Source: an uncultured delta proteobacterium (GTDB lineage Bacteria > Myxococcota_A > Polyangia > Haliangiales > Haliangiaceae). Taken from it: a DNA stretch of 64,000 nt. This document shows, one piece after another, positions 44,101-58,245 of the stretch (position 1 is the stretch's first letter; every line of letters starts with the position of its first letter). The notes below the pieces were generated by a model. The model had not been told where the DNA came from. It made no database searches and saw only the letters and a program-made list of their open reading frames with translations. The stretch spans positions 512,001-576,000 of the forward strand of contig CAWKDB010000010.1 in the NCBI GenBank assembly GCA_963848295.1, written 5' to 3'. Both the position numbers and the translations under genes were made by a program.

Positions 44101-45935
44101 CACCTCCGGATCGATCCGGAACGCGTCGCCTTCTTTGTGGACGGCGAACGCCATCGTCGACTTCGCCGAATCGCGCCATAGCGCTGCCGCGACCTCCTCG
44201 GCCGTCGCGGTGCTCGGAGTCGCTCGAACGAAGTTCCATAGCGCCGCGCTCTCGCGCCCGAGCCACTGCACGTCGACGTGGTGCAGCGCGGTCGGCGTCG
44301 TCTTCGCCGCCTCGACACCGTCATCCACGACGATGCCCGGCAACGCGAGCGCCCGCGCGACGAACGCATCCATCGGATGACTCGCGATCAGGTCGTCGCT
44401 GCTCGGCCGCTGCCCGGTTCGAGCCCATGCGTCGGCGAACCGCGGCCCCACGCGCGTGCGCAGCGAGACCACCGCCGCGCGCTCGACGAGCTGCGCGAGC
44501 GCCTCGGCGAACTCCGGCGCCCACGCGTCGATCTCGTGCGCGCGTTGCTTTTCTTTCTTCGCGTCGCGCGGGCCGATCGACGAGAGCTCGCGTCCTGTGA
44601 CGTAGCGGTCGAACCGGCCTTCGAGGTCGCCCGGCGAGACCAGCGCGGGCATGGTCTCGCCGTGCTCGAGTGAATCGCCGACGAGGCGGGCGAGGCGGCT
44701 CGAGAACGTCTGGTCGCCGCGGAGGCCGCCATAGCCGGCGCGGTCGAACGCCTCGTCGCCGCCTCTGGCCCAGCGCAGCCCCGGGCCGGGCGCGGGCCAC
44801 GCCGCGTCGGCGAGCTGCGACGCGATCGCCAGCGTCAACGGCGCACGGAACATCGTCAGGTACTCGATGAGCAGCGTCCGCGGCTGTTCGGTTGCGGATG
44901 CCGGCGACGGTGCACGCGACGCGCCGTCATGCACCATCACGGCGGCTGGGGACAGCAGACCGCCGAACATCGGCGCGCCGGTGCGCGCGACCGTGCCGTT
45001 GCGCAGTGCCTCGAGCAGGCGCTTGCGCGTGGCGTCGTCGAGTCGGGCGAACCGCGCGGCCACGTCATCGCCGGATCCCGGGCGATAGCGCGCGAGCCGG
45101 GCAGCCAACGCGCGGCGTTCGGAGCCGTCGAGATGCCGACAGCACCCCGTCGAGCCGGGCTTCGACCTCGACGCCGGCTTCGAGGATCCGGCGCAAGGTG
45201 TCGTCGGTCGTCACTGTGGCTGGCGTCGCTTGGTCGGGGAGCGACGCCGCGTCCCGGGGTGCGTGCCCCGCTCGCATCGCCTCGCGCTTGCGCGCGCCTC
45301 CGAGGTACGCGAGCACCGCATCGAATCGGCTCCTCGTGATCCGGACGTTGGGCGCGAGCGCGGACGCGATCGGATCGCCCGCGCGCGCGCGGTGCGGTCA
45401 ACCGGCGCGCCAACACCGAGCACTCGGCCGGAGACATCTGATCGAGCTCGGCCTTCAGTGCCGCCTCCTTCCGAGCCCAGCCGTCCCTCGCGCCGTCGAC
45501 CGGGGCTTCGAGCACCGCGACGAGCTCCGCCTCGCGCGACACCGGAGACCAGCCCAGCGGCGGTTCTGCCAGCTCGTTCGCCGAGGTCTCGTGCTGGACG
45601 AGCGCGCGCTCGGCGTCGTTCAGCTGTCGCCGGGACTCGTCCGACGCCGCGCTCGCCCCGGCGCGAGCGGTGACGAGCTCGTGCTTGGCTTCTGCAAGGC
45701 GCCGGTCGAGCGCCTGCTTGGCGGTGGCCCAATGCTTCGGGTCGTTCGCGGCGTGAGCTTTGCGGACCTCGTCGACGGCGAACCCGAGCGTCTCGATGTC
45801 GCGCTTCGCGGTGGCGACCGCATCGTCGGCTTGCTGCGCCGGGGTCCGCGCCGGCGCGCGATACGGGTCGGCCGAACCGACGCGCGGCGCATAGCTCAAC
45901 TCGTGGCTCTGACCCGGACCGGCGAGCTCGCTCAC
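41155..45935 (-). CDS. Large putative polymorphic toxin (~1590 aa; frameshifts near 45135 and 45390 as assembled)
   Basis: ORF pieces 44937-45953, 45065-45316 and 41155-45108 align colinearly to the N-terminus of 55531-58245; central hydrophobic Ala/Gly stretch; lower-GC C-terminal domain. Start GTG 45935 inferred from the paralog. Confidence 0.72.
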
Positions 45936-46057
45936 GCGCCGGGGTATCGACACGTCGCCGCGAGAGTTGCGTCGACCCCCGTGGGTCGTCTTTCGCGCCT
46001 AAGTGACTGAAACTGCGACACGCAACTCTCGGCGCGCCGCGGCCGATAGCGCCGCCC

Positions 46058-55454: not shown

Positions 55455-55530
55455 CTTCGCGTCGTCGCGTGCGAATCGGCGCTTCGCCAGCGCCGCGCAA
55501 CTTTCACGACCTCGTGCCGATAGCAGCGGC

Positions 55531-58245
55531 ATGGGCGAATTCGCGGACCCGGGTCGTACGTATGACACGAGCTACGCGCCGCGCTCGGCGATGACCGACG
55601 CGTATCAGCCGCCCGTTCGCGCACAGGCGGATCCAGCCAACGACACGATCGTTTCGGCCAGGCGCGACATCGATGCGATACCAGGCGCGATCGAGTTGGT
55701 CCGCCGAGCGCACGCGGCGAACGACCCGAAGGCTTGGGTCGCGGCGAAACAGGCGCTCGATCGACGAATCGCCGACGCGCAGCGCGTGCTCGCGAGTGCG
55801 CGTACGCGCGTGGCGACGGCTTCGCCCGAGTCGGTGCGCGGCTTGAGCGAAGCCGACCAGATGTTGAGCGCGCTCGAGGATGCGGCCGGCGCGCTGGCGG
55901 AGGCGCCGCTCGGTTGGGTCCAGGTCTCACGCGAGCAGGAGATCCTCGCGATCCTCGACGCTCCGATGAATAGCGCGCACGACGGCTGGGCGCAGAAGGA
56001 GGCGCCGCTCGAGGCCGCGTTCGATCAGCTCTCGCCTGCGGAGTCGGCGGTGATTTCGCGGCGGCTCAAAGAGCAGCACGCAGGCGATCCGGTCGCGGCG
56101 GCGCTCGCCCCGAACTTGCGGATCACGCGGTCGCGGTTCGACGCGTTGCTTGCTCATCTCGCCGGCGCTCGAAAGCGGCAAGCTATGCAGGCCGTGGGCG
56201 GTTCGGACATCGAGCCTTCCAATTCGAAGCCCGAGACGGCAAGCGCCGGCGCGGCGGCGGCTTCGACGAACGACCTCCTCCGCCAGGCGCTGGAGGTTGG
56301 CGGCGCTGGTAGAGAGACGCAGCTCGAGGCCGTGTTCGCAGCACTCGATGGCACCGAGCGCCGCGCTCTCGTGTCGCGACTCGAGAGCTACCGACCGGGT
56401 TCAGGCGATGACGTCGCGGCGCGGTTCGTTCGGCTTGACGATGTCACGCGCCAACGCCTCCTTGCAGCGCTGCGCGACGGCAAGCCCGCAACGCTCAAGG
56501 ACGTCGCGCCGACGTTCGGGTCTCCGGTTCACAAGAAGAGCGACGATCGGCGCGAGATGCTCGCGTACTTTGTCGAGCGGATGACCGAGCAGCGGGAGAC
56601 GCTCGAGCGACACAACGAGAAGACGGATCCGCTGTTCGTCGTAGCTCGGAGCCACCTCGACTTCTCGACGCGAGCGGTGGGCTCGGAGACCCGGATGACG
56701 GTGGCGATCCAGAATGCTGAAGGTCGCCGGCTCGCGCTCGATCAGCTGATTCCGGTCGCGAACGACCCTTTCTCGGAGCTCACCGTCGAGCCGGCGAGCA
56801 GCCTCGTGTTCGATCCGGGCGAGGTTCGCGAGATCACCATCGCCTACCGCCCTGCCCGGGCGCTGCGCACGACGCAGACATTTCGCCTGATCGCGAACGG
56901 CGTGCCCGTCGGCCCGGAGGCGGACATCACGGTGAGCGGCGAAGGGAGCAATCTGTTCGAGGGTGTCGACGGTGTGCGCATCCAAGCACAGCGCGACGAG
57001 GCAGCGCTGGCTCGCGGCGACCGCTTGGAGGACCGGCTCTCATACCCACGCGCGTCGGCGAGGGAGCGGCTCGAGGCGTGGTCCAACGCCGCGAAGGAGC
57101 TGAACGCCTCGATCGCGGAGTGGACCGTGCGCAACTGGACCGTGTTCTACGGCAAGACAGGTCGCGATGCCGGTGTCGTCGACATGCACGCGGTCGCAGG
57201 CGTGATCGAGAAGGTCGTAAAAAAGGGCGCGAAGTCTGGTTCGAAGTCCGCGATCAAAGCGTTCGCGCAGGTAGCAAGAAGCGAAGCAAGCGCCGGGCTG
57301 GTGGCAGGTGCATCGTCCGAGGCTGCGCAGCTCGCTCGAGGCGCGATGTACGCCGAGAACATCGTCGTGGGGCTTGTCGTCGATAAGGCGATCGACATCT
57401 TCGGCAGCTGGGTGCTCGACAAGCTCGGCGTCGCGCCGCCGACGGCCGACGAACGCGAGCTCGCCGCGAGCGAGCACGTCGCGAGCGAGAGCATCGACAA
57501 GAGCGTCGAGATCGGCGACGCCCGGCTTCGCGCGAATGCCGTAGTCGACGACACGGATTCGGCGGCGGCGCTGCGTATCGAGCAAGCCTCGTCCGCCAAC
57601 GAGCTTGAACAGTGGATCGCTTGGGCGCAGGATCAGAGCGCGGACCTGCCGAAGCCCGTGGACAAGAACGACCTGACGCTCTCGAATCACCTGCTCGCCG
57701 AGTGGGTGATGCAGCACGCAGAAACGCCGAGCTCGCCGATCGCTTCGACGAACAAGGCTGCGTGGAAGCAGGCCAAGGCCGAGCTTCACGAGTCGGGGGA
57801 GCTCGAGACGCTCGAGCGCAGCGATCTGTTTGTCCACCAATGCCTGCACGAGTGGAGCTCGCTCGGGTTGGACGGTGCCGAAGAAGCGGCGGCTTCCCTG
57901 TCGAACCGCGTCGCGGAGATCGCCAGACATCCGTGGAGGTTGGATGAAGTCGACGGCAGTGCGGTCCAGCGTTGGAACCTGGCCGACGGAGTCTATTTCC
58001 ACCGCAGCGTCGATCCGAAGCGAACCGCCGACACGCTCGGGGCCGGCGAACCGCTACTCAGCGAGACTGGTCGCGGTGAGGCGGTGTTCTCCAATGAGTT
58101 TTCGTTACGCTGCGGAGTCTCGCTCGTGCGTGAAGACGGCGCGATCTACGTCCGGGTGTTTAGCTACGAGCTCGAGTCCAGGTATCTAGGTACCCGCTCC
58201 GATCGCTATCCGTATATCGGTCGCTCGGTAGGACAAACCTCGTGA
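55531..58245 (+). CDS. Putative effector: shared N-terminal domain, ASH/choice-of-anchor-D-like Ig domain, helical C-terminus
   Basis: First ~320 aa homologous to the 45.9-kb protein (AHAANDPK.W..AKQALDRR, RITRSRFDA, YRPGSGDDVAARF.RLDD); HLDFSTRAVGS..VAIQN..FDPGEVREITIAYRP Ig-like motif. Confidence 0.8.
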   Translation: MGEFADPGRTYDTSYAPRSAMTDAYQPPVRAQADPANDTIVSARRDIDAIPGAIELVRRAHAANDPKAWVAAKQALDRRIADAQRVLASARTRVATASPESVRGLSEADQMLSALEDAAGALAEAPLGWVQVSREQEILAILDAPMNSAHDGWAQKEAPLEAAFDQLSPAESAVISRRLKEQHAGDPVAAALAPNLRITRSRFDALLAHLAGARKRQAMQAVGGSDIEPSNSKPETASAGAAAASTNDLLRQALEVGGAGRETQLEAVFAALDGTERRALVSRLESYRPGSGDDVAARFVRLDDVTRQRLLAALRDGKPATLKDVAPTFGSPVHKKSDDRREMLAYFVERMTEQRETLERHNEKTDPLFVVARSHLDFSTRAVGSETRMTVAIQNAEGRRLALDQLIPVANDPFSELTVEPASSLVFDPGEVREITIAYRPARALRTTQTFRLIANGVPVGPEADITVSGEGSNLFEGVDGVRIQAQRDEAALARGDRLEDRLSYPRASARERLEAWSNAAKELNASIAEWTVRNWTVFYGKTGRDAGVVDMHAVAGVIEKVVKKGAKSGSKSAIKAFAQVARSEASAGLVAGASSEAAQLARGAMYAENIVVGLVVDKAIDIFGSWVLDKLGVAPPTADERELAASEHVASESIDKSVEIGDARLRANAVVDDTDSAAALRIEQASSANELEQWIAWAQDQSADLPKPVDKNDLTLSNHLLAEWVMQHAETPSSPIASTNKAAWKQAKAELHESGELETLERSDLFVHQCLHEWSSLGLDGAEEAAASLSNRVAEIARHPWRLDEVDGSAVQRWNLADGVYFHRSVDPKRTADTLGAGEPLLSETGRGEAVFSNEFSLRCGVSLVREDGAIYVRVFSYELESRYLGTRSDRYPYIGRSVGQTS

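Follow-up and report, generated by a model that had tools for sequence, protein, structure and literature searches.

An unnamed helical unit on candidate contractile injection cargo proteins and in Afp15-like ATPase cassettes of an uncultured soil lineage

The 64,000-nucleotide window analysed here (positions 512001-576000 of contig C10 in assembly G000) belongs to an uncultured bacterium, whose high-GC genome assembly comprises 7.8 Mb in 11 contigs and is 85% complete. Two genes of this window, designated A and B, encode long proteins that begin with a common front end of about 320 residues. One part of it, a helical unit of about 95 residues, recurs in related genomes as a gene of its own, close to ATPases that resemble Afp15 of the extracellular contractile injection systems (eCIS). 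The named homologs of the shared region are all labelled 'Kofleriaceae bacterium', and the assignment of the genus to the Kofleriaceae is inferred from these names. The genomes compared are kin, and counts across them come from related organisms. The genus and family tallies take in two unpublished genomes (G037 and G038) as rows; the other claims are independent of them.

Genes A and B and their common front end

Gene B is an intact open reading frame (ORF) of 904 codons. By using tblastn, its residues 1-330 were aligned to the minus strand from 45935 to 44962 in three collinear pieces with a combined E value of 2e-75, which bears out a preliminary description, made from the letters of the DNA, in which a shared N-terminus had been noticed on two proteins. 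The first piece (45935-45399) corresponds to B 1-179 with 51% identity, the second (45385-45134) to B 183-271 with 52%, and the third (45132-44962) to B 272-330 with 69%, running on as a long ORF to 41155. At the DNA level the shared region is 67.5% identical over 1038 bp. Full copies of the front end are limited in this genome to A and B, and two standalone units lie on C10, at 2.62 Mb and 3.50 Mb. Beyond the shared region B matches A no further than residue 330, as had been described, and its residues 331-904 find no match in any other of 49 long family members. The middle of A recurs in 9 of 48 other family sequences (two of the nine being the same protein), so only the cargo of B is unique.

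Gene A changes frame near 45399-45385 and near 45134-45132, and is thus broken twice in this assembly. Since 9 of the 42 conserved genes comparable with relatives carry 18 frameshifts in 54 kb, so that about 1.6 are expected in a gene of A's size, these breaks are probably assembly errors. Among public reads, one soil run was found with short exact pieces of the window, none spanning the breaks, and there was no RNA data set among the listed holders of window sequence. The C-terminal ~280 residues of A look like a toxin tip, for which the only lead, to a TNT domain, was weak (0.90, low recognition).

The AlphaFold2 model of B 1-320, built from 74 sequences (mean predicted local distance difference test, pLDDT, 89.7; predicted template modelling score 0.64), places a leader of low confidence at residues 1-30, followed by a bundle of three helices (33-120), the first helical unit (135-223) and, after a loose linker, a shorter second unit (246-316). 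What had been taken for a single domain is therefore a real region made of four separable parts, of which the ~95-residue unit is the informative one. The internal repeat, also noticed earlier, is confirmed by the comparison of unit 1 with unit 2 in hhalign (probability 96.7, E 4e-10), and in a test of their homology 21 of 29 unit-2 segments outscored the best of 580 shuffles. Modelled alone, the unit gives a confident fold (pLDDT 87). It is small, all-helical and without enzymatic features, with conserved arginines and a mean net charge of +3.5, the charge of unit 1 of B being 0. The standalone units are under purifying selection: of their 12 closest pairs, 11 have dN/dS ratios of 0.12-0.53.

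Neither the shared region nor the unit matched a family in Pfam, NCBIfam, PADLOC or PDB sequences, and a known non-secretion family, which would have spoken against the earlier proposal, was likewise not among the matches. Foldseek returned nothing at E 0.001. In the VIA fold search, residues 29-129 gave generic helical-bundle rows (Z up to 10.6, root-mean-square deviation, rmsd, 2.7, 84 residues aligned) and the unit gave Z values up to 6.3 (rmsd 5.4, 100 aligned), both within the chance range for helical folds. A bacterial annexin domain, which combines a GxGTD motif with the annexin fold (PMC3894181), was considered and found no support: the motif is absent from the unit consensus, Pfam gave no match and no annexin stood among the fold rows listed, the sole lead being from Atlas (0.77).

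Relatives, cassettes and ATPase fusions

Matches to B 1-325 were found in 41 of 90 other genomes of the genus and in 1 of 47 genomes of other genera of the family. Clustering at 50% left 105 representatives, and the region is N-terminal in nearly all the long ones. The unit profile reached 62 of the 90 genus genomes, 3 of the 47 other family genomes (two of the three marginally) and, across the phylum, 3 of 301 sampled genomes, all three within the genus. The relatives are thus almost confined to one genus. A word-index protein search with B 1-325 returned B alone, and a profile search for longer proteins gave 3 matches; both are insensitive here.

Long carriers measure 0.9-3.5 thousand residues. 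The 250-residue C-terminal ends of 49 of them comprise 44 distinct sequences in 23 clusters, some possibly truncated or frameshifted, so that the expectation of variable C-termini was borne out; few ends matched toxin-type families. Tox-GHH, adenosine deaminase and DUF2252/APH were over the Pfam cut-off, zeta toxin and PRTase-CE below it, and the remainder gave none. Behind the region, 9 of 27 proteins carry the eCIS_core domain (DUF4157) over the cut-off and one more has it below; a second, overlapping set gave 9 of 30. In keeping with the described absence of a signal peptide, for which no predictor was run, the N-termini of A and B are both hydrophilic, with means of -0.94 and -0.76 over the first 35 residues. 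Across 32 homologs the leaders average -1.0, with an aromatic residue within the first eight positions in 30; the leader of B is hydrophilic with an early aromatic, and that of A is hydrophilic and has none. Hydrophilic N-termini with an early aromatic have been described for eCIS toxins (PMC11297309), and the B leader is likely a loading leader of this type. Elsewhere in the genome, at C10:4150706-4157338 and C2:477652-484446, there are 2,200-codon proteins with two DUF4157 copies each and no unit, the former ~8 kb from another Afp15-like ATPase.

The overlap with a small downstream gene had also been described. Both stops do overlap a start (GTGA), but the gene behind B, at 318 residues, is not very small. 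Of 17 complete loci, 14 show a closely coupled ORF downstream; the count leaves out two ORFs that continue a frameshifted gene and a single locus that lacks such an ORF. Behind A there is in addition an orphan module, in which a 461-bp copy of the A interior (39953-40413, 99% identical) is accompanied by paralogs of the A tip (59% amino acid identity) and of the gene downstream of A (34%). Adjoining it, at 36872-39273, lies a transposase with an ATP-binding helper gene, presumably IS21-like, with a 58-bp inverted repeat (36807-36861 / 39120-39174). Polymorphic toxin systems combine a conserved trafficking N-terminus with swapped C-termini and carry orphan tip/immunity modules. By their sequences, the long carriers have this layout of conserved N-terminus and variable C-terminus, with the overlapping downstream gene and, behind A, an orphan module with a recombination repeat; they differ in that the trafficking region is unnamed and the toxin role putative.

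The ATPase of the window is, over residues 64-660, 32% identical (E 6e-77) to the AAA gene of the pADAP Afp cluster, which is taken to be Afp15 because of its position between the tape measure gene and DUF4255. Walker A and B are invariant, and the N-terminal domain with tandem AAA modules, the second predicted to be active, is that of Afp15-type ATPases. Together with the 576-residue gene and the FGE-like gene it forms one cassette, and two other loci (L073 and L079) hold the same trio behind a standalone unit. In the window a duplicated hflX end truncates the cassette on its upstream side, and the fused units of B lie 4.7 kb away on the opposite strand.

Small ORFs, with an open frame of at most 450 residues, account for 121 of 143 listed unit rows (7 rows of the unpublished genomes having been dropped from 150). 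Of the standalone hits, 20 were picked by unit score and long contig, blind to ATPase positions, and a homolog of the window's WHD-AAA ATPase was present in the 12-kb locus of 19 of them, compared with ~1-2% expected from 8 ATPases in 7.8 Mb. This count comes from a direct search; an earlier GC-filtered count had given 11 of 20. The ATPase lies directly downstream of the unit at 8 of the 19 loci, after one or two genes at 8, on the opposite strand at 2 and upstream at 1, so that the typical order on one strand is the unit, zero to two variable genes and the ATPase. Viewed from the other side, a listed unit lies within 6 kb of at least 29 of the 50 closest ATPase relatives, then of at least 19 of 50 and at least 8 of 49 further down the ranking, these being lower bounds as contigs are short.

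The intervening genes number 25, fall into 13 unrelated clusters and have 380-840 codons. Their starts, guessed at the first Met, are hydrophilic (median hydropathy -0.9, n=24, vs -0.02, n=72), and lipoprotein-like (labelled by eye) or FGE-like genes often stand 3' of them; one carries peptidoglycan-binding and C39 domains. At five loci (L073, L074, L075, L089 and L090) unit cassettes with different cargo occupy one site beside a fatty-acid gene cluster that looks plsX-like by eye, which is likely an insertion hot spot.

The standalone, cargo-fused and ATPase-linked forms are connected by fusions. In four genomes (L112-L115) a full ATPase carries the unit at its C-terminus. Two of these genomes (G071 with L113 and G026 with L115) also have 2,100-codon carriers, and most genomes have the standalone form instead. 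At L068 the unit stands in frame before the ATPase, a single case and possibly an error, and P0164 combines a WHD annotation with the unit. P0024 is B-like over residues 1-230 (34%) and matches the 576-residue family over 237-824 (E 8e-135), to which the C-terminal part of B itself has no detectable relation; P0053 matches a second cassette cargo family. As a further observation, a 410-codon ORF with the unit at its C-terminus (L121:2429-3658) directly precedes an intact ATPase; it has no Pfam match, and by eye the part preceding the unit resembles a decayed ATPase end.

Cargo loading and competing explanations

The genome encodes tube, sheath and Afp15-type ATPase, as a producer of such particles would. 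Its eCIS structural locus lies at C2:902-933 kb, with two sheath genes, two tube genes, DUF4157 and, by eye, spike and baseplate genes. The 8 Afp15-like ATPases are all on C10 and C11, none at this locus. An AAA gene there (904595-906466) did not match the Afp15-like family, and FHA-domain-like genes were noted by eye; lone tube-like genes lie outside the locus at C10:72 kb and C10:1.533 Mb.

The explanation starts from the placement of the unit at the N-termini of cargo proteins, alone in unit-cargo-ATPase cassettes, and on the C-terminus of an ATPase. In published eCIS cargos the disordered N-terminus is specific to the system, DUF4157 may or may not be present and the C-terminus varies; their loading requires an Afp15-family ATPase (10.64898/2026.05.27.728243; PMC11495950). 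DUF4157 is found in 36% of known eCIS toxins and is hence optional. Effector-associated domains (EADs), for their part, were proposed as coupling adaptors because a small helical domain is found on effectors as well as on a core NTPase, as a fusion in each case (PMC7159879). On account of the published leaders and of this fusion pattern, the leader is read as the likely loading signal and the unit as a likely adaptor. We lean towards the view that A and B are likely eCIS cargo and that the unit is a likely adaptor bringing cargo to the loader ATPase, in cis on the giant proteins and in trans in the cassettes.

Under this mechanism the Afp15-family ATPase, which in published eCIS work loads cargo through the disordered N-terminal leader, is predicted to unfold the cargo and load it into the particle. 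Giant cargos, mostly without a neighbouring ATPase, would carry the adaptor in cis; cassette cargos of 380-840 codons would keep the leader alone and receive the adaptor in trans from the upstream gene; and fusion to the ATPase would fix the partnership. The particles would come from the separate structural locus, itself without an Afp15-like ATPase, and the overlapping downstream genes would encode immunity proteins, with other bacteria as the targets. A bolder version, in which the unit would be a homotypic EAD-like domain, placed on the ATPase, on the cargo or between the two, and the first dedicated folded adaptor of an eCIS loader, and many dispersed, mobile adaptor-cargo-immunity-ATPase cassettes, each having a private loader, would supply one shared particle, is put forward only tentatively, as conceivable rather than probable.

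Several points weigh against cargo loading through an adaptor. Of the known eCIS toxins, 88% are encoded no more than ten genes away from the operon (PMC11297309), whereas here the structural locus is on C2 and both genes are on C10, where an Afp15-like ATPase adjoins instead. Among fused-carrier loci only 1 of 33 has an ATPase (1 of 18 where at least 6 kb lie upstream). Pfam and other scans found no DUF4157 and no toxin family in A and B, toxin- or enzyme-type C-terminal matches came from only 5 of 57 scans of overlapping sets (two of them below the cut-off), and no named immunity family was matched by any of the 14 downstream genes, 2 of which match TIGR02996 (1 over the cut-off). In most other genera, tubes and such ATPases occur with no detectable unit. 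Tube genes are so widespread, in 89 of the 90 other genomes of the genus and in 130 of the 137 of the family, that genome-level co-occurrence is uninformative. The four C-terminal ATPase fusions form one clade (support 0.996) and count as a single event. Moreover, the loading signals described in the literature are disordered stretches rather than folded domains (10.64898/2026.05.27.728243; PMC11495950), for which reason the leader alone may suffice for loading, and linkage in cassettes would be expected from a chaperone or a regulator, too.

The leader could indeed be the only loading signal of these eCIS cargos, with the unit as a chaperone-like or anti-toxin-like stabiliser that binds cargo in cis or in trans without acting on the ATPase. 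AlgoCIS needs the disordered N-terminus and can do without DUF4157 (10.64898/2026.05.27.728243), there is speculation that DUF4157 serves as a chaperone in cis or in trans (PMC11297309), and the standalone gene adjoins the cargo, not the ATPase, at 8 of 19 loci. Against a stabiliser stand the cassette cargos of 13 unrelated clusters among 25 genes, where the ATPase is the constant partner, and the unit fused to the ATPase C-terminus; we regard it as unlikely, though deserving serious attention.

The scattering of the cassettes, with none of the 8 ATPases at the structural locus, would also suit a conflict system independent of any particle, intracellular or contact-dependent, with effectors coupled to an NTPase through an EAD-like adaptor. 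The domain pattern fits EAD coupling adaptors (PMC7159879), and the AAA core matches the anti-phage protein IetA, weakly and far below the cut-off. Such a system is rendered improbable by the DUF4157 that follows the region in about one third of carriers, by the homology of the ATPase to Afp15 over nearly its whole length, by the lack of a PADLOC match for unit or cargo, and by the lipoprotein-like neighbours (by eye), which suggest attack from outside the cell.

Finally, the standalone unit might be a small, basic, nucleic-acid-binding regulator heading its cassette, the copies on giants and ATPase being by-products of gene fusion. Its gene is first in the operon at 16 of 19 loci, its arginines and mean positive charge have been mentioned, and TetR proteins stood at the top of the fold rows (Z up to 6.3, rmsd 4-5, within the chance range). 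Against a regulator, dozens of polymorphic proteins have retained and duplicated the unit at their N-termini in spite of their divergence, no helix-turn-helix family came over the cut-off and unit 1 of B is uncharged on balance, which leaves this explanation very improbable.

Neighbouring features, known systems and significance

The features of the two loci are collected in Table 1. The convergent patatin and hflX gene ends are duplicated around them (48770-49215, 53695-55454 and 59194-60212), with 1025 bp of the hflX 3' part at 96.5% identity and two stretches of patatin, of 117 and 331 bp, at 100%. The inserts differ between the copies, one having the ATPase cassette and the other gene B with the lipoprotein-like gene, and the duplication reflects either repeated insertion at the same site or an assembly in which the alleles of two strains were joined. 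Apart from these genes, the stretch 11518-35231 is occupied by a long tandem array, the genes of which are nearly identical and encode secreted proteins, cysteine-rich and beta-helix-like, with a shared 'GNGYDIGADEYKP'-type end motif, interspersed with PEGA-like genes and carrying several frameshifts (labels by eye); a further copy of the array type, with a Beta_helix match, lies at 46058-47224.

Table 1. Positions in the window of genes A and B, their parts and adjoining features.
Feature	Position	Strand	Description
Orphan module	39188..40413	-	461-bp repeat of A interior, tip paralog and downstream-gene paralog
Gene overlapping A's stop	40685..41215	-	176 aa from first GTG, shorter from GTG at stop; candidate immunity
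Gene A, ~1,590 codons	41155..45935	-	Three frames; same four-part front end, central region common to other members; start could be 45953
A segment repeated in orphan module	42841..43301	-	Source of 461-bp copy
Afp15-like ATPase, 661 aa	49213..51198	-	WHD variant PF22977 and AAA; Walker A/B intact
FGE-like domain protein	51205..52020	-	Lipoprotein-like N-terminus; candidate immunity of 576-aa gene
576-aa cargo-like cassette gene	51969..53699	-	Family usually 3' of standalone unit gene; fused behind B-type front end in P0024
Duplicated hflX 3' part	53695..54719	-	96.5% to 59194-60212; separates ATPase cassette from gene B
Gene B	55531..58245	+	Leader, bundle, unit 1, unit 2, Ig-like domain, unique helical/hydrophobic C-terminal cargo
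Leader, B aa 1-32	55531..55626	+	Hydrophilic, low-confidence model, family motif M[SG]E[YF]xSRG
Three-helix bundle, B aa 33-120	55627..55890	+	ANDxxxW motif; generic spectrin/BAG-like arrangement; fused form only
Unit 1, B aa 121-224	55891..56202	+	Unnamed ~95-aa helical domain; elsewhere in genus standalone gene, ATPase C-terminal fusion
Unit 2, B aa 244-318	56260..56484	+	Shorter second copy, YRPGSGDD; missing from some homologs
Ig domain, HYDIN/VesB-like, B aa 372-471	56644..56943	+	PF22544, over cut-off
318-aa gene	58242..59198	+	Overlaps B's stop by 4 nt; lipoprotein-like N-terminus (by eye); no family; candidate immunity

Among known systems, the cargo proteins Cgo1 and Cgo2 of AlgoCIS, loaded by Alg15 of the Pvc15/Afp15 kind, share with the present family the hydrophilic, disordered N-terminus, optional DUF4157 and variable C-terminus (10.64898/2026.05.27.728243; PMC11495950). 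There too the partner ATPase is an Afp15 homolog, and the N-termini are alike within a system and unlike between systems. In contrast with AlgoCIS cargo, here the leader is followed by a three-helix bundle with a confident fold and by two helical units, the unit is also a separate gene and an ATPase fusion, and the ATPase has several paralogs, which are found in scattered cassettes at a distance from the structural operon. The polymorphic toxins marked by DUF4157 resemble the present proteins in their shared N-terminal marker, very long linker and variable tip, in the toxin or in an adjacent gene (PMC8213781; PMC11297309), whereas the unit has no sequence similarity to DUF4157 and no HExxH, ranges little beyond one genus and is tightly linked to the ATPase, A and B themselves having no DUF4157. 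With EADs the unit has in common that it is a small, all-helical, non-enzymatic and lineage-specific domain with copies on a core NTPase and at effector N-termini, for which an adaptor role was proposed (PMC7159879). Unlike them, it matched no EAD or Death-like family in Pfam (17 members, E up to 5) nor among the 50 fold rows listed, its core is an Afp15-like AAA, not a MoxR-vWA or GTPase ternary system, and the standalone form is the commonest.

The delivery or loading domain defining an effector class that had first been proposed is thus supported in part: it keeps its N-terminal position on long, variable proteins, about a third of them with an eCIS marker, but it points to a known class of eCIS cargo in one genus and not to a new secretion pathway. 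New are the unit as a standalone gene, its cassette with an Afp15-like ATPase and its fusion to the ATPase; the general cargo class was already known. Full-text search of the eCIS literature, covering mostly non-subscription journals without supplements (of which the domain lists of PMC8213781 and PMC11297309 may be relevant), found no such unit, cassette or adaptor described, and no paper was found on contractile injection in Kofleriaceae, on orphan effectors with an Afp15-type AAA or on Afp15 in myxococcal bacteria.

The significance is bounded by the narrow range, essentially one genus, and by roles that are predicted. Within it, the unit bears on how Afp15/Pvc15 ATPases choose their cargo: published signals are disordered and unconserved, and a small foldable domain offers a handle for binding and loading work. 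In addition, it flags numerous candidate antibacterial effectors and ATPase cassettes that lack annotation, in a soil lineage that is abundant and uncultured; operon-based eCIS surveys would miss them.

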